This document shows positions 1 through 62,860 of a DNA stretch of 64,000 bases, in pieces. Below the pieces are notes generated by a model. It worked only from the letters and a program-made list of their open reading frames with translations. It ran no database searches and was not told where the DNA came from. The DNA comes from a virus. The stretch lies in UHGV virus genome UHGV-0084588; one strand, written 5' to 3'. Numbering within the stretch: the stretch's first letter is position 1; each line of letters begins with the position of its first letter. A program made the position numbers and the translations under genes.

Positions 1-848
1 GCTCTGACCCCCAGCGAGGGGGTGGGGATCGGTGAGCGGTATTTTCCGGAAAAACCGAAATTCGTACCCGGGGTATTTCACCAGGGTAAAATCCCCACCT
101 GGGGGATCGGGTAGGGGTGTACCCGACCGGGGGTAAAACCCCATTCCCCTTTTTCGAACGTTAAAACCCTATGGTATGTTCGGAGGATTTGCGTGGGGTG
201 ATTTACAAATCCGACCACGAAGATTTTTCGGAGTTCAGGAGTTTACTGCTCACAGCTCAAACACGATTTCTGTCTGCGAAGATTCAGCAGAGCTCGAAGC
301 CCCCTGACCGGGTGTTGGTTTGGGGGTTGTTTTTTCGAGTGCATGGAATTTATTTCACCGTGTACTGGGAAAAACAAAACGTTCAGCCTAACACTGGAGT
401 TTGTTTTACTATGGGGTTTGAAAATCGATTTGCGAATCGAATTTACCCCGAGGGATTTTTGGAATCCCCAGAGTTCAGGTGCTCGGTACCGTTCCCCGAC
501 TTACGAGTGTTGGGGAGCCCGCGCTATCAGTGACGCGTGGACCACATGAGAAAATCCGAGTGAACCGTGGCAGCCTCTGGGAGCGACGTTGGCGAAAGGT
601 CCGTAGAACTTACCTGCGGGCAGCCGACGGTGGGATACGCTCCCAGAGGTGCGGCCAGAATGCGAATTACGACGTTGCGTCGAATGACCCTGCTCCAGGT
701 AGCGCTGGCAGTGTGATGTCCTCTAGCTTGACGGCTCGCAAAGACGAGAGGGGTGCGTACTCCCGTTGAGAAACGCCGGTACGCAGCTGAATTATTTTTT
801 ACGGAGTTTCCTGTTGGTGTGACACAAATCACGGCAGGAGATTTTAAT
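1..848. other. GC-rich non-coding region with G/C-tract repeats and a 12-bp inverted repeat (574-585 / 638-649); no convincing CDS
   Basis: Only short ORFs without RBS; repeated units such as gtacccggggta...aaatcccc and gtacccgaccgggggtaaaacccc in 1-170; perfect inverted repeat cctctgggagcg / cgctcccagagg. Confidence 0.4.
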
Positions 849-1166
849 ATGACTTTGAATAATACGTCCAACTTGTATCTGGTGCATTCCTCAGACGGCA
901 AGCGAACCATTCTGGTTCATGCTGAATCGCATCGCGAGGCTGGCGAGCTTTGGGATGGCGACGAACAAGTTACGTTGCAAGTCGATCGACTTCTGGGCGG
1001 TACTTACCAGTTCACAGGCTCTCCGGTAATCTTGGCTGAAGTTGATGGGGCTGTAGCCACTGCTGGTGTTATCAGCACGCAGTTTTTCGTGTATGTCCCT
1101 GACGGGAAAACGCCCACAGCAGACGGCTTATCGCTGCTACAGCAGGCCGATGTAGGAATTCTGTGA
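849..1166 (+). CDS. hypothetical protein (105 aa)
   Basis: ATG at 849 preceded by aggag RBS; stop overlaps start of next gene (TGATG). Confidence 0.5.
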   Translation: MTLNNTSNLYLVHSSDGKRTILVHAESHREAGELWDGDEQVTLQVDRLLGGTYQFTGSPVILAEVDGAVATAGVISTQFFVYVPDGKTPTADGLSLLQQADVGIL

Positions 1167-1666
1167 TGACCACGATTGTTTTTGACGGAAAGACGTTAGC
1201 TTGTGATGGCCAAGTCACCGTGGAAGACCGAAGCGCTGCCACGCAATACCGTAAGATTCACACGCCGCCTGAGGGTACGACGTGGAAGCTTTTGGGTGAA
1301 GACGTGAAAGCGATTGGTTTGGCAGGTGATGTCGCCGCATTGCAATCCGTGCGTCAAGAACTCACGCTTGAACGTTTCGGCGGCATCGAACGGGGTGGGG
1401 TTCGTTTTGAAACGACGTATCCCGAACAGATTGAATTTATCGTACTTGCTGTTTTGACAGACGGGCGTGTTATCGACGCCTCGAAGTGCAAAGACAACAA
1501 ATACGCCAGCTACGTGTTTGTAGAACCGCCGTATGCGATAGGCTCAGGTGCTCACTATGCCCTGGGTGCATTAGGCGCTGGCGTTGACGCCCCCACTGCG
1601 GTGGAAGTGGCGAAACGTTACGACCTGTACAGCGGTGGTCAAACGCAAACACTTAAGCTGTTTTGA
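1166..1666 (+). CDS. HslV-like / proteasome beta-type Ntn-hydrolase peptidase
   Basis: N-terminus M-TTIV...DGQ(V)T matches HslV TTIVSV...GDGQAT; Lys near position 30; AIGSGA motif matches HslV AIGSGG; about 166 aa, similar to HslV length. Confidence 0.7.
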   Translation: MTTIVFDGKTLACDGQVTVEDRSAATQYRKIHTPPEGTTWKLLGEDVKAIGLAGDVAALQSVRQELTLERFGGIERGGVRFETTYPEQIEFIVLAVLTDGRVIDASKCKDNKYASYVFVEPPYAIGSGAHYALGALGAGVDAPTAVEVAKRYDLYSGGQTQTLKLF

Positions 1667-1675
1667 TGTATAAAG

Positions 1676-1748
1676 ACCATTGAAGTTAGAGGAATTAACA
1701 CCCGACTAATAATCGGTTATTTCGCAGGTTCGAATCCTGTCATTGGTC
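1676..1748 (+). tRNA. tRNA-like element (73 nt), anticodon loop cu-AAU-aa, identity uncertain
   Basis: Canonical T-arm gcagg-TTCGAAT-cctgt, 7-bp acceptor stem with one U-U mismatch, D-stem gtta/taac with GG in loop; atypical A8 and weak anticodon stem. Confidence 0.45.
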
Positions 1749-2384
1749 TCCCGAATTAGAGCAGTCGTACAGTGGGTAGATTTTCCCGTCAGCCTTCAAC
1801 TGAGATACGTCTGCTCTGATAACTTCTGCTCTTGCTCACGGGTAGAAAGCTCCTTAAAAACGTGTAAACACCTACCGATTAAGTTCGGACTTACGTTTAG
1901 GGCCGTAGGGTCCTGGTAGCACGACTACCGAAACGGTTGTACGGTGGGAGGATATCCTCCCACCTGCATCCATCAAGAATTTAATTATTGGGTTTTCCCC
2001 TAAGTGTAACGTGAATACCCTGTAATGTGAATTGAGAGTTACGTGTTAACTCGACGGTACCGGTCGTTGATTTTTTAGTAAACCTTCATCGTCCCATGTC
2101 TGCTGCATTTGGCTGGTACTGAACTTTGTCGCTAAGCCTGGTGAGGTGGCTACACACCGAGGCTGGGGCTCGACACCCGTTAGCGGCACCCTTTTTGCGT
2201 TATTGTCAGTATTCTGAAGCTGTGTTCAGTGACAATAGCGTTTTTTATTCGCGTTGGCGTTTGTACCATTGCTGCCACTGCCTGCTGCGCCTCAACAAAC
2301 GGTCAACGCGTCCCACTAACCCACACGTCGGGGTATAGCGACGTACAACAGAACGAGTAGTAGTAACAGAACGAGGTAACAGAA
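1749..2384 (+). other. structured non-coding region with multiple hairpins
   Basis: No ORF with RBS; perfect hairpin ggtgggagg-atat-cctcccacc (1945-1966); tattgtcag...ctgacaata stem (2201-2238). Confidence 0.35.
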
Positions 2385-3032
2385 ATGCTTACAGTAAAAC
2401 GCATCATTAACGGCGACCGTGTCATCACTGTTCACGAACGTGTACGTTTAGGTGACAAAATGTCCCGTGTTTACAAAGAAGCACTTAAAATCGTTAACGG
2501 CGAAGATAATGAATTGTGTTTTGATAACGCGATTGATTTGCCGAGAAAACCGAAACAGGTAGGTTATACAGCTTTAACTGATATGTCCGTAGAGGAACAG
2601 AAAAGCACCTTGGCCAACCTGCATCCGTTTTTGCACAATGTGTCAGATTGGACCGTTGTCATTGGAGGTCGACCTATTCCAGAGGATGTACCACGTGTGG
2701 TGATCGTTAACCCACGTATGCCGTCCTTCGAAGAAAAGAATTCGCCAGTCGACGAAATTTATATTCCTGGCAATAATTTCTATTGCCGGTTTTGTGGCTT
2801 TACACAGCGTGAAATGACGTATGTGATGCCAGCTCAAGAAATCCAATTAGTCCGCGAGCTGATTAACGAAGATGGTGATACCTTCTATCAGAATCAGCTC
2901 CGTAGCGGTAAGCACTCGGTTGACGAGGCGATTGGCGTTTTACTCGTCGACGATGCTTACGAATTTTTCTATCCAGGGGATGTGGTTTACATCATGAACA
3001 ATGAAGGTAAAACCATTGATACCCTGCGATAA
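2385..3032 (+). CDS. hypothetical protein (215 aa)
   Basis: ATG with RBS cgaggtaacagaa; followed by terminator-like hairpins. Confidence 0.6.
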   Translation: MLTVKRIINGDRVITVHERVRLGDKMSRVYKEALKIVNGEDNELCFDNAIDLPRKPKQVGYTALTDMSVEEQKSTLANLHPFLHNVSDWTVVIGGRPIPEDVPRVVIVNPRMPSFEEKNSPVDEIYIPGNNFYCRFCGFTQREMTYVMPAQEIQLVRELINEDGDTFYQNQLRSGKHSVDEAIGVLLVDDAYEFFYPGDVVYIMNNEGKTIDTLR

Positions 3033-3135
3033 CCAGTTTAGCTCCGCCGAAAGCTAAAAGCCCACCCTTCGAGAACGCCCATTCTCATGCCCTGAAGGGT
3101 TTTAATCCTGTAGTTTCATTGCCGATGACAGGGAA

Positions 3136-3176
3136 CGTACCTACCTCCGAAAGGGGGTAGGTATATTCTTTTTTAT
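3136..3176 (+). terminator. rho-independent terminator
   Basis: hairpin cctacc-tccgaaaggg-ggtagg followed by T-run. Confidence 0.55.
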
Positions 3177-3187
3177 CGCAAATTTTT

Positions 3188-3205
3188 AGAGATAGATGTT
3201 ACCTG
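3188..3205 (+). promoter_or_regulatory. candidate phage promoter, ATATATTACCT-family variant (agagatagatgttacctg)
   Basis: Resembles the 27-mer at 54336 and 62590; about 50 bp upstream of CDS 3257. Confidence 0.35.
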
Positions 3206-3256
3206 TATGAACGTTGGTACTAAGCGTTTTAATTCGACTTTTTAGGAGCAGGTAAA

Positions 3257-3697
3257 ATGAAAATAGATGCCATTGAAGGTTTGATGTGTTTGGGGTATTC
3301 GTTTGATGAAGCGGCTGTTATTCGACCGTTTTTGTCACGCCATTTCTCAGTGTGGCAAGCATTACCCAATGATGGTCCGACTGGTAAATTAGTAGAACGA
3401 TTTGTTGAGCGGGTGTTGAATCGTAATCGGAATGAATTTAGTTTACGGTGGGCGGATGGGAAAGAACGCAAGCACTTAAACCCAAGCCCTTGGTGTATGT
3501 TGGTGTTTCGTTGTGATGACGAAGAATTTACGTTCCCAGCTATTGAATTTGTAAGGCGGTACGGGTTAGCAATTTACACAGAGTTAGGAACAAACGGCGC
3601 AGGTCGGGTATTAGTTTACGACCGAGGCGAGCTACGGATTAAAACGAAACAGTTGGCGGAGCTTTACCACGAGCGTCACGCCGTAGAATTAGTATAA
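3257..3697 (+). CDS. hypothetical protein (146 aa)
   Basis: ATG with RBS aggagcaggtaaa; terminator downstream. Confidence 0.6.
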   Translation: MKIDAIEGLMCLGYSFDEAAVIRPFLSRHFSVWQALPNDGPTGKLVERFVERVLNRNRNEFSLRWADGKERKHLNPSPWCMLVFRCDDEEFTFPAIEFVRRYGLAIYTELGTNGAGRVLVYDRGELRIKTKQLAELYHERHAVELV

Positions 3698-3723
3698 CTA
3701 TAAATCAGCTATAGAGGGTGATT

Positions 3724-3750
3724 AGGGGACTATACGTCCCCTTTTTTTTG
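3724..3750 (+). terminator. rho-independent terminator
   Basis: hairpin ggggac-tata-cgtcccc followed by TTTTTTTT. Confidence 0.65.
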
Positions 3751-3790
3751 ATTTTTACGGTACTGGTATGTATTTATAGGAGGTGGTACC

Positions 3791-4195
3791 GTGAACGTCG
3801 AAGAACCACATTACGATTTTTATAGTTTGTTAGAGAACAACATCTTTCCAGAACGGATTTTAGTTCGCAGTCGTTTAGACGATTTGATTCTGTATACGCT
3901 CTTGCCTATACTGGCAAATCACCCTGAGTTTAAAGCATGGCTTACTGAAATGAAATCCATTGACGAACCTGCTTTGCTACTAAACGATGAGGTTCCGGTA
4001 ATACGCACGAATTACCACCTTACGCGAACGGAGGTCCATGCGATTACCCCGAAACTAGTTAATTCGTTTATGTGTGAATTAGCCAACGGGATAAAACGTC
4101 AACAGATACCGTTAGTTGAAGCTTTCTCTGTGTTATTGGATGCGGTATACAGTTTCCAGTACCAGGCAACCAATAAGCTGTCAAATATCCATTGA
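3791..4195 (+). CDS. hypothetical protein (134 aa), GTG start
   Basis: GTG preceded by ataggaggtggtacc RBS. Confidence 0.55.
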   Translation: MNVEEPHYDFYSLLENNIFPERILVRSRLDDLILYTLLPILANHPEFKAWLTEMKSIDEPALLLNDEVPVIRTNYHLTRTEVHAITPKLVNSFMCELANGIKRQQIPLVEAFSVLLDAVYSFQYQATNKLSNIH

Positions 4196-4214
4196 GTTAT
4201 AGTGGGAGAGAAAA

Positions 4215-4595
4215 ATGAATACTACACTGCGTCCACTGGACGTGATTTTGGTGCATCCGGACGCATTGAGTAAAATTAAGATTCGGAGCCAGCTCGACGA
4301 GAAGCTGCTTTCGTCTTTGGAATGGGGTTTTGTAATGCACCCCGGTGAGTATAAAAACACGCGATACAATGATGTTCCAGAAGGTAGCGTGATAGATTGG
4401 TCTGTGCCGGAAGGGTTTGAAGATGTCGTTCAGTACATGGCTGAAATGACGGTGCCCTACACGTTACCGATTGCGGGACCTGCGGAGAATATCATTAGCC
4501 TACGCAGATTGGTGAATGCACAACCTGAAAACATCCGTAATGGGGTGGCGTGGACGACAGGAACGGCATGTCATTTGAAGAATATGTTGCAGTGA
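4215..4595 (+). CDS. hypothetical protein (126 aa)
   Basis: ATG with RBS gggagagaaaa. Confidence 0.6.
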   Translation: MNTTLRPLDVILVHPDALSKIKIRSQLDEKLLSSLEWGFVMHPGEYKNTRYNDVPEGSVIDWSVPEGFEDVVQYMAEMTVPYTLPIAGPAENIISLRRLVNAQPENIRNGVAWTTGTACHLKNMLQ

Positions 4596-4602
4596 AAGAA
4601 TA

Positions 4603-4649
4603 GTACCCACTACTCGTTTCGGAGTAGTGGGTAGGTTTTCTTTTTTTTT
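4603..4649 (+). terminator. rho-independent terminator
   Basis: hairpin acccactactc-gtttcg-gagtagtgggt followed by a long T-run. Confidence 0.7.
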
Positions 4650-4650
4650 G

Positions 4651-5463
4651 TTACGATTTGAAACGACCGCCTGACATGTAGTTGTAACGGTTGCCCGAGT
4701 CGTCGTTGTGCACCATCGCACGTTGCAGACGTGGTAAATTGTCGTTGAACATTTCACCCGCATCGGAATAGCCTTCGATGACATTTTTAAACGCACCGAA
4801 TTCCATACCATTTTCGAGACGACCAGAATCCATGTCGAAAATCATTTTGTTGTAGATATACTGTTTTGTGGCGTAAAGTGCCATATCCGCAACAACCGGA
4901 TAGAAAGCCGGTTTGATTTCGTTTAAGTCTTCGGACATTTCGAATTTAACCTGGAGTTTGGTCGCATAAACGAACATGCCGGGGTCTTTGATTTTAATAG
5001 TGTTAGGTCCAAGCTTTTTCACCTCAGGTGAAGAAATGCGCGGCATTGCGGATTGACTATCCACCACCTGTTGAGTGGAGGCTAGTACACCAGACGTTGC
5101 ACCATCTAGATAAGACCCGGCAGGTGGTAAGGTATAGGCTTGTCCTGCCACTGGCGTGACGGCCATATGGACATCAAGTATTGGACGCCCGCCGGTTTTC
5201 ATATCGTCCAGGTAATAGATACGTGAGTAATAGTCCTGGGTGTCGTTTTCAAAAGGGAGACCCTGTAAATCGATCTCAGTATACTGACCTAAACGAGAGA
5301 CTTCTGGAATTAAGTATTCTCGAAAAACCTTTTGAGTGATTTCATTATCCAACGAACTGGCAACACCAAAGTTGCGAAGATTTTGAGGTACAAAAGCCGC
5401 ACGAAGAATCGGTTCGGGAATTTCACGACGTATTCTCCGTAGACAGTAGTCGATGACGCTCAT
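4651..5463 (-). CDS. hypothetical protein (270 aa)
   Basis: Minus-strand ORF with aggag RBS upstream of ATG (reverse complement of 5464-5480). Confidence 0.55.
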   Translation of the reverse strand: MSVIDYCLRRIRREIPEPILRAAFVPQNLRNFGVASSLDNEITQKVFREYLIPEVSRLGQYTEIDLQGLPFENDTQDYYSRIYYLDDMKTGGRPILDVHMAVTPVAGQAYTLPPAGSYLDGATSGVLASTQQVVDSQSAMPRISSPEVKKLGPNTIKIKDPGMFVYATKLQVKFEMSEDLNEIKPAFYPVVADMALYATKQYIYNKMIFDMDSGRLENGMEFGAFKNVIEGYSDAGEMFNDNLPRLQRAMVHNDDSGNRYNYMSGGRFKS

Positions 5464-5584
5464 TGCGTGCTCCTAATAGGCTCTGTAAAACGGTTCATAG
5501 GATCGGGTAATAGTCCAACCCTGCCTTACTAAAAAATACACTCTGTGCCCTTCCTGTGCGCACTATACTCGAATAATTTTTGTA

Positions 5585-5597
5585 TAGATATTATCTT
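5585..5597 (+). promoter_or_regulatory. palindromic TAGATATTATCT motif (candidate promoter/operator)
   Basis: Same motif family as 13388, 13468 and 27097; 33 bp upstream of CDS 5630. Confidence 0.4.
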
Positions 5598-5629
5598 AAT
5601 GATGTTCCCTTAAAGGAGTATTAACGTTA

Positions 5630-5953
5630 ATGACGCGCGTGCTATTTGGTTTTCTGCTAGACTCTAGCCATTCAGTTCGCTATCGTCCTGAGGAGATTTT
5701 AGAAGCGATACAAGAACTGATTTTTCCGGGTGTTCACAATTTACCTGGAGATCGCTTGAAGGTGGCAGAAAGATATTTTGGTTCGGATGCGTGGTTTATG
5801 ATCAGTGCGTTGGGTCGTGACCACAATAGTCCTTTCTCTTATAAAAATGGAGTTGTGCAAACGTGGTCAAAATACACTTCAATCCAGCTACAGTTTATCA
5901 TAACTTCTGGACAGCGATGGAAAAAACATCCTACGCTTCCGCTTTGCGGATGA
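5630..5953 (+). CDS. hypothetical protein (107 aa)
   Basis: ATG preceded by conserved taaaggagtatta RBS context; stop overlaps next start (ATGA). Confidence 0.55.
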   Translation: MTRVLFGFLLDSSHSVRYRPEEILEAIQELIFPGVHNLPGDRLKVAERYFGSDAWFMISALGRDHNSPFSYKNGVVQTWSKYTSIQLQFIITSGQRWKKHPTLPLCG

Positions 5954-6489
5954 CAGTAAAAGAAAAACAGGCCGTTACTGTACAACTGATACACACAGCA
6001 TTAGAGGATATTTTTCACTCAATCCCCAGAATGCCGAATAGTCGGCTGCCGGATTTTTTAGACCAGTTCACGGATGCTTACACCCTAACGAATTTACTGG
6101 TTGCAGATGGTCGTGTAAAACCACCTAAAACAGTGAAGTGTCGTCAGGTTCTTGTCCATCGTTCAGCGTTTGGTGAAGTTGCAACAGAACAAGAGCGTGA
6201 GGTTTGTGTGCTACGTTCGAAAACATATCTCTTGGGATTGGCGTTTGATGACTGCTACGACGTTTTGTTGTGTGAGGTCGAATCTTTAGTTAGGGAAGGG
6301 TTTGAGGCTGTCGGGGAAGTTTTCAATCCTTATTTAACGGTTGAGATTGAACCACACCTTACGCCGAGAGGTCAAATTGCGATGATGGAGCTTCGTCTTG
6401 GAGAAGATATCCGATTTATCCACTACCGGAACTGTTTCCCGGATAAAAGATACGATCCGGATTACCTTACTCGATCACGTGACGTATAA
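5950..6489 (+). CDS. hypothetical protein (about 179 aa); start chosen at the ATGA overlap rather than ORF-track start 5863
   Basis: In-frame ATG at 5950 overlapping upstream stop; translational coupling pattern. Confidence 0.5.
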   Translation: MTVKEKQAVTVQLIHTALEDIFHSIPRMPNSRLPDFLDQFTDAYTLTNLLVADGRVKPPKTVKCRQVLVHRSAFGEVATEQEREVCVLRSKTYLLGLAFDDCYDVLLCEVESLVREGFEAVGEVFNPYLTVEIEPHLTPRGQIAMMELRLGEDIRFIHYRNCFPDKRYDPDYLTRSRDV

Positions 6490-9713: not shown

Positions 9714-12026
9714 GTGGAATACATTTCTCCTTTTCGTTTAACGGTAGATGAATACCATCGTGATATTGATGTCAATGATGCCTACCGCGAACAGGTCGCG
9801 TTATACATTCATAACGTGACAGCACAAAAATACCCTTTAGAATTTTGTCGTCAGGAAGTCGATGCTCTTATTGCTCCTGGCGGTGAGTTAGCAACCGAAT
9901 CACCCGTGTGTAAGATGTGGGTGCGAAATCAGAAAACGGGCGATCGTGAGGAAAAATACACTACCGTCGATAAGCTATTTAAAACCGTCATTGACAAACA
10001 GATTATCTCCGCACCTTCGTTAACTTTTTATTTGCCCGAACACGTCAAACGTTCTAAGTTGTCTGAATTCACAGCAGCTAACGTAGCGAAACGTGCTGCG
10101 GTAAAAAAGGAAATGTTTGCAGCAGCAGCAGCGGGCAATGAAGTATTAAAGATCAACAAAAAGAACGAACAGAATGCGGTCAAGACGCTGAACAACGGTA
10201 TGTCTGGTGCATTCTCCTCTCCGTACACGATTATTTTCAACCAGTCTTCACACTCCGTACTGACGTCCACTTGCCGTACTGCAACTTCGTTCGGCAATGC
10301 TGGAAACGAACGTTTATTAGGAGGTAATCGTCATTACGATACCCCGTCACGCATTATTGATCATTTCTTATCTATCGGTACTTTAACCGATTGGAATAGC
10401 TTTAAGAAATGTATGGAGACGTATGAGCTTCATTACCCGTCGGTAGAAGAGGTGATGGAAGTTATTCACTATTCTGCTGATTTCTACTTTAAGAACGAAG
10501 AGGGGATGGAGTTCGTTGAGCATTACGTTAGTAATGTATCACCGTTGACGCGTGCCGCGTTTGTTTACATGGGTGATTTTTTCCACCTGGCTAAATACAA
10601 CGATAAGTTCATGCGCGACTTTATTGGTGCATTAATTACCCCTGAAGCGCGAGTTGATACTGAGGGCTGGACTGATACGGACTGGGTTGCTGCTGAGAAG
10701 ACCATCGATGGTGATATGCAGATTATTATCTCACAGTTCCGTACCGACGTAGTACCGATGGGTAAAGCGTTCAGTGACGTTAAGAAACTTGACGGTAATA
10801 AAAAACCCTTGCCGTGGGATCAGCAGGATGGCTATAAAGAACTAATTCGTTCCGCGCTGTTCTTACAGAAAACGATCGGTAAATACGCACTACTGATTCG
10901 TAATATTCTTACCACGAAAAACTTACCAATCAACATTGCTCGAATGCCGGATGTGGTTCGTCGTGTAGGCGTAGTATCTGATACTGACTCTACAATGATG
11001 ACTGCGCAATGGTGGGCAATCTGGTACACCGGTAAACATTACGGTGAGATAGCGACCCGCGTTTCCAATGCGATGATCTATATTGCGACACAGCACTTAC
11101 GGCATTTGATGGCGAGTATGTCAGCAAACATCGGCGTGGCGAAGGAGCGCTTGTTCCTGTATGCAATGAAGAACGAATTTAAGTTTGATTCGTTTGCATT
11201 GACTACCAAAGCAAAACATTACTTCTCACTGATTACCGGTCAGGAAGGCCAGCTGAAAAAAGATCCCGAGCTGGAAGTAAAAGGTGTGTCTTTACGCACA
11301 TCTAACATTCCTCCGATTATCATGAAGGAATTTAAGAACACTATCAAAGGGCTATGTGAAGTTGTTGCCCGTGGTGATCAGATCGAAATCATTCCGTTAC
11401 TGGAAAAGGTTGCCCAAATCGAACACACGATTATGGATTCTATTCGTTCTGGAAATCCAGGGTATTTGAAAACGACGAACATCAAGGAACGTAGCGCTTA
11501 TAACGAGAAGGATGAGAAGAACTACCATTACCATCGAATGTATAATGCTATCTTTGGTCCGAAGTTTGGTTATTTGGAAGAACCGCCGTACGATGCTGTG
11601 AAACTTCCGGTAACACTGGAAAACAAAACGAAGATTAAAGAATGGATTGACGGTATCGAAGATCCGATCATCAAGAACGGCGCATCGGCGTGGTTTGAGG
11701 AGACAAACTTCCGTAAATATAAAACATTGATTCTACCAGAACACTTGGTGGAAAACTACGGTATCCCTAAAGAGCTTATCGATATCGCAGATATCCGTCG
11801 TACTGCTTTCTCTACGGTTGAACCGTACTATCACATTCTCGAATGCTTAGGTGTGTTCATGATGGATAAAAACAGGATGAGGTTGTTGTCAGATTTCTAC
11901 GATAAAACCGAGGAGAAAGACGAACTGTATAAGGAATTAGCGGAAGTACAATACGTTAAGAAATCGGAGAGGGCAGGGGATGACGAAGAAGACGATGACG
12001 AAGAAGAGGTTTTTGACGACGAATGA
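9714..12026 (+). CDS. putative family-B DNA polymerase, C-terminal (polymerase) fragment, with acidic C-terminal tail
   Basis: Motif B-like KTLNNGMSGAF, motif C VVSDTDS, KKRY-like KAKHY; no exonuclease motifs or motif A in this ORF; GTG start with agagg RBS; B-to-C spacing is unusually long. Confidence 0.45.
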   Translation: MEYISPFRLTVDEYHRDIDVNDAYREQVALYIHNVTAQKYPLEFCRQEVDALIAPGGELATESPVCKMWVRNQKTGDREEKYTTVDKLFKTVIDKQIISAPSLTFYLPEHVKRSKLSEFTAANVAKRAAVKKEMFAAAAAGNEVLKINKKNEQNAVKTLNNGMSGAFSSPYTIIFNQSSHSVLTSTCRTATSFGNAGNERLLGGNRHYDTPSRIIDHFLSIGTLTDWNSFKKCMETYELHYPSVEEVMEVIHYSADFYFKNEEGMEFVEHYVSNVSPLTRAAFVYMGDFFHLAKYNDKFMRDFIGALITPEARVDTEGWTDTDWVAAEKTIDGDMQIIISQFRTDVVPMGKAFSDVKKLDGNKKPLPWDQQDGYKELIRSALFLQKTIGKYALLIRNILTTKNLPINIARMPDVVRRVGVVSDTDSTMMTAQWWAIWYTGKHYGEIATRVSNAMIYIATQHLRHLMASMSANIGVAKERLFLYAMKNEFKFDSFALTTKAKHYFSLITGQEGQLKKDPELEVKGVSLRTSNIPPIIMKEFKNTIKGLCEVVARGDQIEIIPLLEKVAQIEHTIMDSIRSGNPGYLKTTNIKERSAYNEKDEKNYHYHRMYNAIFGPKFGYLEEPPYDAVKLPVTLENKTKIKEWIDGIEDPIIKNGASAWFEETNFRKYKTLILPEHLVENYGIPKELIDIADIRRTAFSTVEPYYHILECLGVFMMDKNRMRLLSDFYDKTEEKDELYKELAEVQYVKKSERAGDDEEDDDEEEVFDDE

Positions 12027-16828: not shown

Positions 16829-17178
16829 AAATACTGGCCCACTAGACGGGAAACCTCTAGTGCGTATCCCTCGAATTGCTGGGAACTCCTAAAGCTTACG
16901 ATCCCGACAGGGTGGCGAAAGTCAGAAACAATTCGTAAGATAGCCTATGCTAACCAATAATGCTAAGGGTTGAGATAATGGATAACCAGCAGCGATGAAA
17001 ATCGTTCAACGACTATCGAAAGGGTAAAACCGAGTAGAGTAGCTGCTTAGTTTAGCGGCGAAGTGGGGGAGACCTACGGGTAGCAATACCTACGGTTATG
17101 ATATAGTCTGTGCCCATGTGAAAGCATGGGAGGGTGTCATTGCACACCTGCTCCAAAAGGAATGGGGTGGACAAACAG
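16829..17178 (+). ncRNA. group I self-splicing intron (350 nt, no internal ORF) interrupting the NADFDGD motif
   Basis: Exon 1 ends in U and intron ends in G; joining gives ...APNA-DFDGDQ...; core-like elements (consensus from memory): P aattgctgggaa (16874-16885), Q aaccagcagc (16984-16993), R gttcaacgacta (17004-17015), S gatatagtc (about 17100-17108). Confidence 0.75.
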
Positions 17179-17418
17179 GATTTCGATGGCGATCAGTTAC
17201 AATGCAGATTGGCAATCGACCAGATTGAAATGGAACTGGGCATGGCTTATCGTCCAGACAACGGGTTTATGTCAAGCACGAATGTGGATGAGGTTTCGAG
17301 CTGCATGATTCTCCATAACGAGAACATCAGCAACATAAACCGTTTCTTCCAGGATACTGAAGAGGACCTGGAGGCCGGTATCGCGCTTGACTCGGAATTA
17401 TTAAAAATGGCGGGGTAA
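17179..17418 (+). CDS. RNA polymerase beta-prime-like subunit, N-terminal fragment, exon 2
   Basis: Begins DFDGDQ...; ...MSSTN matches bacterial ...MMSTNN; same frame as ORF 17134..17418, whose apparent GTG start has no spaced RBS. Confidence 0.7.
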   Translation, partial: DFDGDQLQCRLAIDQIEMELGMAYRPDNGFMSSTNVDEVSSCMILHNENISNINRFFQDTEEDLEAGIALDSELLKMAG

Positions 17419-17424
17419 TGAAAC

Positions 17425-26713: not shown

Positions 26714-26719
26714 GTGAAG

Positions 26720-26752
26720 TAAAAAGAAGGGACCGAGTCCCTTCTTTTTTTA
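26720..26752. terminator. bidirectional terminator between convergent genes
   Basis: hairpin aagaagggac-cgag-tcccttctt flanked by A-run and T-run. Confidence 0.65.
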
Positions 26753-27073
26753 ATCATTACCGATGGTGCTAATAATCTCACTAACCGTTCCGACGTCGGG
26801 TACGATTAGTTGCGTGATTTCAGGGGTGAAATTCATGGGGTCTTCTAGCCCGTTTAATAGCATCATTGGATAGATAATGATATCGGCGTAACCTTTGAGT
26901 TTACAGTAGGCGTAGAAATTGTGGACCTCAGGCCAACTGTAGCGTGGGTCAACATTTTCTATTTTAGTTTTCGGGTGTTTACGCAGATAGTCTGTGTAAT
27001 CGTGCATCACTTTCCACGTCGTGGTGTAAGGCGCAGGTATGAATTCTTCTAGGGTAATAAAATTGTCTAACAT
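26750..27073 (-). CDS. hypothetical protein (107 aa), lone minus-strand gene
   Basis: Minus-strand ORF with aggaa RBS. Confidence 0.5.
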   Translation of the reverse strand: MLDNFITLEEFIPAPYTTTWKVMHDYTDYLRKHPKTKIENVDPRYSWPEVHNFYAYCKLKGYADIIIYPMMLLNGLEDPMNFTPEITQLIVPDVGTVSEIISTIGND

Positions 27074-27096
27074 AATCGTTCCTAAAATAAGTGAGA

Positions 27097-27108
27097 TAGA
27101 TATTATCC
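27097..27108 (+). promoter_or_regulatory. TAGATATTATCC motif (candidate promoter/operator)
   Basis: Same family as 5585, 13388 and 13468; about 30 bp upstream of ATG 27137. Confidence 0.4.
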
Positions 27109-27136
27109 TACTGATTCAACCTAAAGGAGTATTAAA

Positions 27137-36090: not shown

Positions 36091-36206
36091 ACCCGAACGA
36101 GATTCCTTCGGATCACGTCATTAATACGCTTAAGCTTGATACCACCTCACTGTTCAAACAACGTAGCACGCGCCCGATAACTTATCAGGAAGCCCACGAT
36201 GAGCTT

Positions 36207-36512
36207 TTGGGTGCGTACGATTTATCGGTCGGACTAGATACCGGGACGAGACATGTTGGCTTATCAGATTTCGAAAACCCCGAATATGGGAGTTTGTATG
36301 AAATCTGGATGGAAGTGTATCTGCGCGAGCAGATAGGTGAGCATTTCAGAATGACCTTCGACGAGTGGTTAAATCGACCACGGTGGGAGATTTTGATGAT
36401 GCTCCGTGTGCTTAATCGTCGTAAAGCTGCGATTAAGAAAGTCATGAGTGACGTTACTGCCGGTGATCCAGAGCTACAAGGTTTGGAGAAAGAACTTAAG
36501 CTGAAAAATTAA
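36207..36512 (+). CDS. small hypothetical ORF, TTG start or later start; doubtful
   Basis: No ATG with good RBS at the 5' end. Confidence 0.3.
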   Translation: MGAYDLSVGLDTGTRHVGLSDFENPEYGSLYEIWMEVYLREQIGEHFRMTFDEWLNRPRWEILMMLRVLNRRKAAIKKVMSDVTAGDPELQGLEKELKLKN

Positions 36513-36514
36513 GT

Positions 36515-36558
36515 ATAAGGGAGTCGTAAAGACTCCCTTAGCTTTTTCTTTTTTTTTC
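36515..36558 (+). terminator. rho-independent terminator
   Basis: hairpin taagggagtc-gtaaa-gactccctta followed by a long T-run. Confidence 0.7.
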
Positions 36559-36593
36559 GCTTTTGGTATGAACCCCTTGTATTGGAAAAGGCT

Positions 36594-56499: not shown

Positions 56500-56785
56500 G
56501 TTTGCAACCTTAGAAAAGCTCTTTTTAGGTAGCGTTGCGAAAAGGAAAATAGCGCGCTTCTCTTGGTATCCTTCCCCTGCAAAACACGCGTTCATACGTC
56601 GTTTACATCAAGAGAAAAGTGTCAGGCTGGTCTTGATAGTGTTGTTCGAAAACAGCCGTGGGTTGTTGATTAACAACCACCGTTTTGCGGCAGAGATTTG
56701 GGCAACCACATCTGGGGGCGAGGAAGCGTCTGTTGGCTTCGCTAACGACGAGATTATCTTTGAAGGTATACCTTATCTGTTATAG
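56489..56785 (+). CDS. hypothetical protein (about 98 aa)
   Basis: ATG at 56489 with RBS, overlapping the DHFR stop. Confidence 0.4.
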   Translation: MGTEFATLEKLFLGSVAKRKIARFSWYPSPAKHAFIRRLHQEKSVRLVLIVLFENSRGLLINNHRFAAEIWATTSGGEEASVGFANDEIIFEGIPYLL

Positions 56786-56798
56786 GTAGTTTAAACGT

Positions 56799-56833
56799 AA
56801 AAGGGGACTTCGGTTCCCTTTTATTTTTTTTTC
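56799..56833 (+). terminator. rho-independent terminator
   Basis: hairpin aaggggac-ttcg-gttccctt followed by a long T-run. Confidence 0.65.
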
Positions 56834-56874
56834 ATTTCGCGCCTGTGATATGACTATAACGAAGGAACAAGCCA

Positions 56875-62427: not shown

Positions 62428-62429
62428 AA

Positions 62430-62472
62430 ACTTCCCGTTACCTCTGTGGGTAACGGGAATACCTTTTATTTA
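62430..62472 (+). terminator. terminator-like hairpin
   Basis: cttcccgttacc-tctgtg-ggtaacgggaa followed by a T-rich stretch. Confidence 0.55.
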
Positions 62473-62589
62473 TCGCTAAACGCCACGCAGAAGTCATTTC
62501 ACCATTAAGGCGACTAATTACCCTTTAAAAAGAAAATCGCGTTAGAATGCGTTTTAGAGCGTTCTAGAGGGTATATGGATTCAAAAAGA

Positions 62590-62616
62590 TTTCAGATATA
62601 TATTACCTAGGTGAGA
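62590..62616 (+). promoter_or_regulatory. candidate strong phage promoter, 27-mer TTTCAGATATATATTACCTAGGTGAGA (second copy)
   Basis: Identical to 54336-54362; about 47 bp upstream of ATG 62663. Confidence 0.55.
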
Positions 62617-62662
62617 GTTTACGTAATACTCATTTATCGAATACCTAATTAGGAGTTATATC

Positions 62663-62806
62663 ATGATTTCTGTAAAACACAAAAAAGCTATCTTCGCTGT
62701 TGTTATCGCTGTTGTTCTGGGTTGCCTGTACCTGGACATCGACAAAGGCTACGACACTTGCATCGACAACGGTAATTCCGTTGCACAGTGCACTGGTCGT
62801 GGTTAA
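62663..62806 (+). CDS. small membrane protein (47 aa), not in the ORF track
   Basis: taggag RBS 7 nt upstream of ATG; MISVKHKKAIFAVVIAVVLGCLYLDIDKGYDTCIDNGNSVAQCTGRG; optimised codons; own promoter and terminator. Confidence 0.6.
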   Translation: MISVKHKKAIFAVVIAVVLGCLYLDIDKGYDTCIDNGNSVAQCTGRG

Positions 62807-62810
62807 TGTA

Positions 62811-62843
62811 TAAGGCACCTTCGGGTGCCCTTAATTTTTTTAT
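62811..62843 (+). terminator. rho-independent terminator
   Basis: hairpin aaggcacc-ttcg-ggtgcctt followed by TTTTTTT. Confidence 0.7.
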
Positions 62844-62860
62844 TAATTGGAGCATAAAAG

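Follow-up and report, generated by a model that had tools for sequence, protein, structure and literature searches.

The transfer RNA (tRNA) cluster of phage T4 encodes two stable RNAs, species 1 and species 2. The phage and prophage RNAs ROOL and GOLLD often lie near tRNA islands (PMC12286853), and in the giant phage 201phi2-1 small RNAs derived from 5' untranslated regions arise by premature termination, one of them adjoining a tRNA, while a further 201phi2-1 small RNA has a counterpart in phiKZ (PMC11512511). Among tRNAs, those with A at anticodon position 34 (ANN anticodons) are nearly missing from prokaryotic genomes, which has been called a paradox (doi 10.64898/2026.05.15.725136). In the same preprint every ANN tRNA was engineered into Escherichia coli, those tested matured and were translationally active, an A-to-I change was inferred for an ANN tRNA of a two-codon box, and overexpressed Ile-tRNA(AAU) made cells grow faster and to a higher final density in at least two media (doi 10.64898/2026.05.15.725136). 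Bacterial tRNA-Ile2 has a CAU anticodon whose C34 is converted to lysidine by TilS (see also PMC11947777, PMC3919564). Here we analyse a stretch of 64,000 nucleotides (nt) of the virus genome UHGV-0084588, called the window as a whole and numbered from its first letter, in which a tRNA gene with anticodon AAT (1675-1752) is followed by about 630 nt of hairpin-rich sequence up to 2384. In the best explanation, which we consider probable, these are two separate things, namely a working A34 tRNA and a structured trailer and leader RNA.

Protein identity and gene order place the window at the left end of a jumbo phage genome of the SPN3US-like kind. Searches of IMG/VR, metagenomes, GTDB genomes and RefSeq E. 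coli yielded a clade of 13 genomes of about 222-228 kb, whose members besides the window include L004-L006, L013-L018, L035 and L028; the last is NZ_CP173450.1, a circular 221,873-bp 'plasmid' from a urinary E. coli isolate. The first element of the locus is:

1675-1752, + strand: tRNA gene with anticodon AAT at 1708-1710, supported by ARAGORN, Rfam, a family parse, covariation and the PGAP annotation of the orthologue.

ARAGORN calls tRNA-Ile(aat) at 1675-1751 on the + strand, and the Rfam family RF00005 scores 38.3 bits (E = 1.6e-05) over 1676-1748, above its gathering score of 29, while the orthologue in NZ_CP173450.1 is annotated as tRNA-Ile by PGAP. These calls bear out the 73-nt tRNA-like element that an earlier note had described from the letters of the DNA, and the parts named there (a canonical T arm, acceptor and D stems, an A at position 8 and a weak anticodon stem with anticodon AAU) are all found in the sequence. 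The cloverleaf occupies 1676-1748, and the acceptor stem is extended to 8 bp by a pair between G(-1) at 1675 and C73 at 1748. The acceptor stem ACCATTG/CATTGGT has one U-U mismatch, the D stem is GTTA/TAAC, the T arm is GCAGG-TTCGAAT-CCTGT, including GGTTCGAATCC, and the anticodon loop CTAATAA sits on a stem of four pairs plus a C27-U43 mismatch; position 8 is A, the tail at 1749-1752 is TCCC, and CCA is not encoded in the gene. In a canonical bacterial elongator, exemplified by the other tRNAs of these phages, position 8 is U, the acceptor stem has 7 bp, the anticodon stem has 5 bp and CCA is encoded; the tRNA here departs from this in its A8, its eighth pair G(-1):C73, its C27-U43 mismatch and its TCCC tail. 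Neither does it fall into two special classes. A TilS-substrate tRNA-Ile2 would have C34 in CAU, and the loop here is CTAATAA against CTCATAA in relatives; a tRNA-His would combine G(-1):C73 with a GUG anticodon, and the family that carries this pair has AAU or CAU.

The slot that separates the HslV-like gene from the gp262-like gene is occupied in relatives by a tRNA array, with 2 annotated tRNAs in SPN3US, 3 in Proteus phage 7 and 7-12 in SPAsTU, pSal-SNUABM-04, Stratton, Asesino and one metagenomic relative. The homologue of the window's tRNA is the last or second-last gene of this array, and in SPN3US-type phages it has 89% identity (over 65 nt to the SPN3US copy) and the anticodon loop CTCATAA (CAT). 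When 13 family members were parsed arm by arm, seven different acceptor-stem sequences were found, all of them pairing, together with two D-stem types and five T-stem types. In all 13, G(-1) faces C73 to form the eighth acceptor pair and 27:43 is mismatched, while the tail is N-CCC in 10 of them, the other tRNAs of these phages encoding CCA. U8 is usually missing, being kept in two members and replaced by A or C in the other 11. A one-base bulge interrupts the 3' acceptor strand of the Seoulvirus and Asesino copies; ARAGORN misses the Seoulvirus copies, which fits the bulge, and calls the Asesino copy. The acceptor, D and T stems covary, and the eight unbulged sequences have compensatory changes at 9 of 22 cloverleaf pairs, as opposed to 3.1 +/- 1.2 in shuffles and 0-2 in slid controls. 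This covariation, and an AAT form unchanged in at least seven genomes, contradict the idea of a degenerate tRNA put forward in the earlier note; they suggest that 1675-1752 is a working tRNA gene belonging to a non-canonical family of SPN3US-like jumbo phages. The family has been annotated before yet is undescribed, and A34 is a new variant in it.

The same peculiarities might be expected of a tRNA that does not decode: it might serve as a decoy or substitute when a host nuclease targets tRNAs, or it might be mis-charged, taking a His-like identity from G(-1):C73 and not from the anticodon. The invariance of that pair, the universal 27:43 mismatch, the A or C at position 8, the N-CCC tail in place of CCA and the want of an evident codon-supply need in the phage would all agree with it. 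Nevertheless, the canonical anticodon loop C32-U33-NNN-A37-A38 is kept, the T and D loops retain their tertiary partners TTCGA and GG, and the recurrent change affects position 34 only, which points to selection on decoding, so that we regard a non-decoding role as improbable. As a separate observation, the relatives carry a tRNA-like gene of 70-120 nt with an aberrant anticodon arm just 5' of their CAT tRNA (L001 2933-3002, L002 3624-3694, L003 4903-4981, L021 1652-1745, L024 4290-4409 and L025 4360-4480), which is labelled tRNA-OTHER, Asp, Pro or a 120-nt 'Ile(aat)' and is missing from the window clade.

The AAT anticodon is found in all seven clade members with the gene (the window, L005, L006, L016, L018, L028 and L035) and also in the copy of Proteus phage 10. 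Since the D arm and positions 8-9 of the latter group with those of the CAT-bearing Asesino and those of the window with the CAT-bearing SPN3US, the simplest reading is that C34 apparently became A34 twice independently, in the window clade and in Proteus phage 10, with recombination being possible as well. A CAU tRNA-Ile2 requires TilS both for reading AUA and for charging by isoleucyl-tRNA synthetase, and an A34 version would not. In its most likely role, the phage tRNA would be an isoleucine tRNA for AUU and AUC codons, with AUA added if A34 is deaminated, and it would decode without lysidine synthesis by the host TilS. The amino acid attached is most likely isoleucine, a label taken from the anticodon, ARAGORN and PGAP. 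The tRNA cassette is optional, with a tRNA-Trp and a small open reading frame (ORF) in its place in four clade members and neither of the two in L015. In NZ_CP173450.1 the AAT tRNA is the only RNA gene (PGAP and ARAGORN on the complete genome, Rfam on its 50-kb segment), and the gene would be viewed as a dispensable cassette and the sole tRNA kept by the phage.

The sequence behind the tRNA does not appear to code for protein. No ORF of at least 20 amino acids (aa) in 1749-2384 survives intact in every relative (best 5 of 9), and the variable columns of this region have no third-position excess, as expected from the claim of the earlier note that some 630 nt are without a coding sequence. A 43-aa hydrophobic ORF on the + strand (2229-2360) and a 16-aa ORF on the - strand behind TAAGGAG were considered and rejected, being not intact across the clade and free of codon-position bias. 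The block is present in every aligned clade locus, whatever the upstream cassette, and its conserved sequence starts with ATT(A/G)GA(A/G)CA (window 1755) in every clade member aligned. Its richness in hairpins, also pointed out before, holds quantitatively: 1749-2250 has a minimum free energy of -172.9 kcal/mol, and against shuffled sequence the + strand reaches z = -4.86 and the - strand z = -2.72; RNAalifold on ten sequences gives a chain of about 13 local hairpins whose stems are kept by compensatory changes. When pairs were counted after one unsupported long-range helix had been dropped, 126 pairs in 17 helices had 98.1% of cells paired, compared with 95.4 +/- 0.3 in shuffles, and 14 pairs had changed on both sides, compared with 8.6 +/- 1.5 in shuffles and 0-4 in slid controls. 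G-U cells number 120 against 6 A-C cells, and the same helices read on the - strand or as DNA are only 88.8% paired, a strand asymmetry to be taken together with the fact that the structure itself was predicted on the + strand. The long-range helices proposed by RNAalifold, between block start and leader and between an A run and the terminator U run, were discarded as unsupported. Compensatory helices, strand asymmetry and the lack of a conserved ORF, drawn from two or three haplotype groups, are what is generally found for structured RNAs, and they suggest that 1755-2384 is a structured non-coding RNA locus of the + strand, which is presumably transcribed.

The strand asymmetry also bears on the possibility that the block acts as DNA, through cruciforms or protein sites such as a replication origin or a packaging or partition site. 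Its position near the left end of the genome, its many inverted repeats and a perfect 22-bp palindrome at 1943-1964 may call such a site to mind, but G-U against A-C cells at 120 to 6 fits a one-strand RNA and not DNA, the palindrome is not preserved as such in relatives, where the loop length changes, and there are no iterons (repeated binding motifs). A DNA-level element is accordingly the reading to which we give the least weight, and it is extremely unlikely.

Decay offers another account of both elements, which takes the tRNA for a dying pseudogene and the 630 nt for the remains of the relatives' array of 7-12 genes, neither being functional. The relatives' slot holds 7-12 tRNAs against one or none in the clade, the tRNA is optional and scores low (38 bits), the block diverges at about the synonymous rate, and L017 has a natural deletion in it, all of which decay would explain. 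It would not explain tRNA arms that covary around an unchanged AAT, nor stretches of about 85 nt that are nearly invariant, and 98% paired cells with 14 compensatory pairs are not expected from neutral decay. Moreover, the block lies downstream of the last array position and does not replace the array, and the tRNA model finds no match in it at E <= 10. The first hairpin, H1, was aligned with the tRNA-Asn that follows this tRNA in relatives, and the alignment beat shuffles only for the window sequence against 2 of 4 relatives and not for other H1 alleles, so that H1 was rejected as a tRNA-Asn relic; in SPAsTU an element analogous to H1 follows an intact tRNA-Asn. We therefore assign decay a low probability. 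The same results, and the presence of the block with or without the tRNA, leave a tRNA-derived regulatory RNA, as the earlier note had it, without detectable basis; of its interpretation, the atypical tRNA and the non-coding RNA locus stand, and degeneracy and derivation from a tRNA do not.

In the Rfam scan of 1-6000 at E <= 1, only the tRNA and Plastid-ycf2 (E 0.16, on the opposite strand of the tRNA) were matched, and in the scan of 1749-2390 at E <= 10 only two terminator-like matches at chance level were returned, with ROOL, GOLLD, T-box and OLE all unmatched. Searches of the block with blastn and nhmmer against the loci of Seoulvirus, Machinavirus, Erskinevirus and Proteus phages found no sequence homology, and homology to these loci was rejected. 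As a narrowly distributed structured RNA the block is new, and its general kind is known. A large 'ornate' RNA of the ROOL or GOLLD kind, linked to tRNA islands and forming RNA-only assemblies, would resemble it in being phage-encoded, about 500 nt long, highly structured and next to a tRNA, as ROOL and GOLLD are near tRNA islands (PMC12286853). The missing Rfam match, a predicted fold that consists of local hairpins in a row and lacks any supported long-range helix or pseudoknot, the free variation of most loops and the confinement to one clade of 13 genomes make such an RNA very unlikely here. The parts of the block are as follows:

1755-1820, + strand: H1, a 14-bp stem closing two small hairpins (three-way junction), predicted by RNAalifold.
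1824-1899, + strand: most conserved core, with the weak hairpin H2 (1824-1847) followed by 1848-1899, which is nearly invariant and mostly unpaired and contains H3 (1875-1888).
Within 1899-2121, + strand: H4 (1899-1914), H5 (1915-1929) and H6 (1935-1971), each with compensatory pairs.
1978-2033, 2036-2052 and 2055-2121, + strand: H7, H8 and H9 (variable tip), with compensatory pairs in H9.
2127-2196, + strand: H10, Y-shaped, with an 8-bp closing stem and two arms (2127-2188), then CCC and TTTTT; conserved terminator-like site 1.
2197-2246, + strand: H11, a long hairpin (2197-2240), then TTTTTT; terminator-like site 2.
2250-2310, + strand: H12, a stem of about 15 bp enclosing a variable loop with a 17/18-nt indel; one-sided changes keep the pairing.
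2325-2384, + strand: H13 (2325-2344, loop GGGTATAG), then a purine-rich leader with GAGG (2373-2376) before the ATG at 2385; 5' leader of the gp262-like gene.

H1 has four compensatory pairs in its long stem and two in its first inner hairpin, H6 contains the 22-bp palindrome, and the changes in H8 are confined to the loop. In H11, changes among UA, UG and CG leave the stem paired, and L013, L014 and L015 have an entirely different loop; both H10, a stem with CCC and then TTTTT behind it, and H11, a hairpin with TTTTTT behind it, are conserved. A further terminator-like site flagged by a scan at 2051-2070 was rejected, its T run being not conserved in relatives. Conserved cores are found at 1787-1804, 1812-1895 and 2125-2195, and hairpin tips are nearly saturated with change. 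The core behind H1 has about 8 variable columns in roughly 85, compared with 25-90% variable columns in the neighbouring blocks.

Such a core, which varies far less than the sequence around it and is mostly unpaired by prediction, could belong to a trans-acting small RNA that base-pairs with mRNAs of host or phage through 1848-1899, the hairpins providing scaffold and terminator. The core contains CUCCUUA, which is complementary to Shine-Dalgarno sequences, terminator-like hairpins lie downstream, and small RNAs are found in related giant phages (PMC11512511). The seed idea consists of a single 7-mer, though, and about 450 nt is long for a base-pairing small RNA; no promoter was found, and 12-mers of the block (with at most 1 mismatch) occur elsewhere in the window at chance level only, with no repeated motif and no target emerging. 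This function is unlikely in our estimate.

At the other end of the block, GAGG at 2373-2376 is the Shine-Dalgarno sequence of the gp262-like gene, and the layout of H12, H13 and leader is shared by three genera, recurring upstream of the homologous gene in Seoulvirus and Machinavirus, both of which have long-range stems equivalent to H12 there. Across an alignment hand-picked by structure, the H13 loop reads GGGNANAG, 6 of 6 stem pairs covary and 100% of cells are paired; the H13 motif has a single intergenic occurrence in the window. Two variants touch this region. The H12 loop indel at window 2263, made of CATTGCTGCC-like repeats, separates haplotypes, the window having the short form, and in L005 (2537) the gp262-like gene has ATT at the place of the ATG start codon found in all others.

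The explanation that we favour, a working A34 tRNA and a separate structured RNA, builds on the tRNA call, family membership, covariation, strandedness, absence of ORFs and distribution among genomes, all of which are shown here; transcription, termination, the attached amino acid, what the tRNA decodes and any regulatory role are inferred. Region 1755-2384 would be both the trailer of the tRNA transcription unit and a long leader of the gp262-like gene. The block would be transcribed on the + strand with or after the tRNA cassette, with H1 as a boundary or processing structure at its start, followed by the conserved, largely unpaired core and the run of hairpins H2-H9. Most transcripts would end at H10 or H11, releasing a stable structured RNA of about 450-500 nt, whereas polymerases that read through would carry H12, H13 and the leader into the gp262-like gene, whose expression would depend on this read-through. 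Such a scheme matches the transcript mapping in the related giant phage 201phi2-1 (PMC11512511). The released RNA may function in trans via its invariant core, may serve only as an insulator or attenuator, or may be ROOL/GOLLD-like. A bolder version, rather doubtful in our view, is that a natural TilS-independent or nuclease-resisting tRNA-Ile(AAU) with an 8-bp acceptor stem has been selected twice, independently, among jumbo phages and is coupled in this clade to a hitherto undescribed structured RNA of about 450 nt beside the tRNA. The conserved Y-shaped H10 of that RNA, with its 12-bp stacked stem, UCGA loop and CCC tail, would be a tRNA-like minihelix for tRNA-processing enzymes.

Several findings weigh against a working A34 tRNA followed by a functional RNA. 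On the side of the tRNA, the copy in the window clade has an acceptor U-U mismatch, A8, C73 and no encoded CCA, and its G(-1):C73 is the hallmark of tRNA-His. The gene is lacking in 5 of 12 clade members and is hence not essential. Isoleucine codons occur in 34 window ORFs at 30.3 (ATT), 25.8 (ATC) and 4.6 (ATA) per 1000, close to the values of E. coli, so that codon supply gives no explanation for keeping the tRNA. On the side of the block, the covariation comes from two or three haplotype groups with signs of recombination, and the independent events are few. The block diverges by 8-10% (20% against L015), as much as the third codon positions of the flanking genes, and selection therefore acts on pairing and a few cores and not on the whole block sequence. 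H10 has a 3-nt spacer ahead of its U run, and a simple terminator scan listed neither H10 nor H11, both of which exceed its loop and stem limits. In L017, the deletion takes away H10 entirely, together with the 3' half of H9 and the 5' half of H11; with 2073-2232 missing, this assembled genome at least can dispense with H10 and H11, which are therefore not essential. Finally, the promoter-like consensus TAGATATTAYCT..GTGA, the only promoter class recognisable here, is absent from 1-2600, and with 12-mers at chance level a repeated motif or promoter inside the block was rejected.

Two side observations concern the same features. The deletion in L017 (3302-3332) is a natural one of 160 nt (window 2073-2232), with about 30 nt of unrelated sequence in its place. 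The promoter-like consensus, consisting of an A-rich stretch, TT..AG.TAGATATTAYCT and ..GTGA, has 7 sites upstream of + strand genes in the window (3193, 5585, 13388, 13468, 21899, 54343 and 62597, all on the + strand), and a looser pattern has 10 matches compared with 2.8 +/- 1.8 in shuffles.

As for the phage itself, megablast of window 1-6000 against the phage collection gave no match, no phage record there being close at the DNA level, and the relationship was therefore established through proteins. The DNA polymerase is 80% identical to its counterpart in Salmonella phage SPN3US, and the gene order is the same as in SPN3US, counted from the left end of the genome; on these sequence grounds the window phage is a new SPN3US-like jumbo phage. 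The + strand holds most window ORFs, and the following genes were recognised:

1163-1666: HslV-like peptidase, PHROG match.
9714-12026: DNA polymerase, PHROG match.
In the window: split RNA-polymerase beta subunits, PHROG matches.

Pfam found no domains in the flanking proteins that might hint at function. The 'plasmid' NZ_CP173450.1 (L028-L033) of E. coli strain 98232 (urine, Egypt) is a complete 222-kb jumbo phage genome of the clade, encoding a morphogenetic protease, a family B DNA polymerase and tail fibres. As this clade genome was deposited with a urinary E. coli isolate, E. coli is probably the host of the clade. E. coli chromosomes showed no similarity to the tRNA or the non-coding block, and a host origin of either was rejected on that ground. 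A 13.7-kb contig, L035 (JAEWFE010000254.1), was binned in a 'Bacillota bacterium' metagenome-assembled genome; its phage locus is about 92% identical, and it is probably mis-binned phage DNA.

The left end of the genome has further peculiarities. Window 1-848 is without a convincing gene, has a richer guanine-cytosine content (0.515) and many GGGG/CCCC hairpins, and is 86.5% identical in L035, while the equivalent of about 2.1 kb in NZ_CP173450.1 is unannotated. A small ORF at 849-1166, upstream of the HslV-like gene, is swapped for an unrelated sequence of similar length at L035 3940-4282, making 849-1166 a further variable cassette. Other gaps of 375-490 nt between ORFs of at least 120 aa lie at 16961-17424, 26714-27136, 36091-36581, 56500-56874 and 62428-62860.

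The most surprising parts of the locus are the natural ANN tRNA and its apparent recurrence. It is a conserved, phage-borne tRNA in an E. coli setting that seems to have arisen twice from a CAU tRNA, and it offers a concrete system for the role of A34 in vivo, for deamination and for why a phage without other tRNAs keeps this one. The block is a new candidate on the short list of structured RNAs beside phage tRNA genes, and its layout of boundary junction, conserved core, tandem terminator-like hairpins and conserved leader hairpin suggests control of an early gene in nucleus-forming-type jumbo phages, in which RNA-level regulation is little known.

Compared with described tRNAs, the closest are the CAT tRNAs of SPN3US-like phages, which are labelled tRNA-Ile, tRNA-Met or tRNA-OTHER (Proteus phage 7, pSal-SNUABM-04, Asesino, SPN3US) or left unannotated. 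The window's tRNA has in common with them the slot at the array end ahead of the gp262-like gene, G(-1):C73, the 27:43 mismatch, the anticodon stem CCGA/TCGG and the N-CCC tail, but differs in its AAT, in an acceptor sequence of its own with the U-U mismatch and in being the sole tRNA in the genome. With tRNA-Ile2 it is linked through the anticodon arm of these CAT relatives, which is close to ...CGACUCAUAAUCG..., and through their tRNA-Ile label in tRNAscan-based annotation; unlike tRNA-Ile2, it has an A34 that is not convertible to lysidine, an 8-bp acceptor stem and no U8. E. coli tRNA-Ile has A73, against C73 in the phage tRNA. The two bacterial tRNAs known to have an 8-bp acceptor stem are tRNA-His and tRNA-Sec, and the phage tRNA similarly places an extra G:C pair atop a 7-bp acceptor stem, although its anticodon is neither GUG nor UCA, it has no long variable arm and there is one more nucleotide before the CC tail. 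With the engineered A34 tRNAs of E. coli it shares the ANN anticodon in an E. coli setting, whereas those are engineered and the phage tRNA is natural, phage-encoded and conserved (doi 10.64898/2026.05.15.725136).

For H1, the nearest counterpart is a covarying element with a 13-14-bp stem that directly follows the last tRNA in relatives (Seoulvirus, Machinavirus, Erskinevirus). It has the conserved interior TCCCGAAGRCATTC ... GGTC and lies at L002 3774-3850, L027 3163-3236, L003 5141-5213 and 3916-3985, L024 4641-4709 and L025 4647-4716; pSal-SNUABM-04 has a second copy just before tRNA-Asp. Of these loci, L002 and L003 alone were scanned with Rfam, and in neither was a family matched at this element. 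A covariance model of it (R1, from alignment A7) gives its own members 72-85 bits and the second pSal-SNUABM-04 copy 48 bits, and at E <= 10 it finds nothing in the window and clade loci but one chance-level match elsewhere in L005. Like this element, H1 directly follows the last tRNA and has a covarying 13-14-bp stem with an interior of about 40 nt, and the interior of the relatives' element forms small hairpins in some single-sequence and Seoulvirus-alignment folds. Unlike it, H1 is unmatched by R1 and was rejected as a member of that stem family; by position and build, H1 is analogous to the post-array element and not a demonstrable homologue.

The block as a whole resembles ROOL, GOLLD and the T4 species 1 and 2 in being a phage RNA encoded beside tRNA genes, and is set apart from ROOL and GOLLD by the lack of an Rfam match and of evidence for ornate long-range structure and by its very narrow distribution. 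With the small RNAs of 201phi2-1 and phiKZ it shares the setting, that of non-coding RNAs in related giant phages; the former are delimited by a terminator ahead of a gene, and one of them has a tRNA as neighbour (PMC11512511). Those RNAs are shorter than 250 nt and are defined by transcript ends (PMC11512511), whereas the block measures about 450-630 nt, has no sequence in common with them and is defined by comparative structure only.

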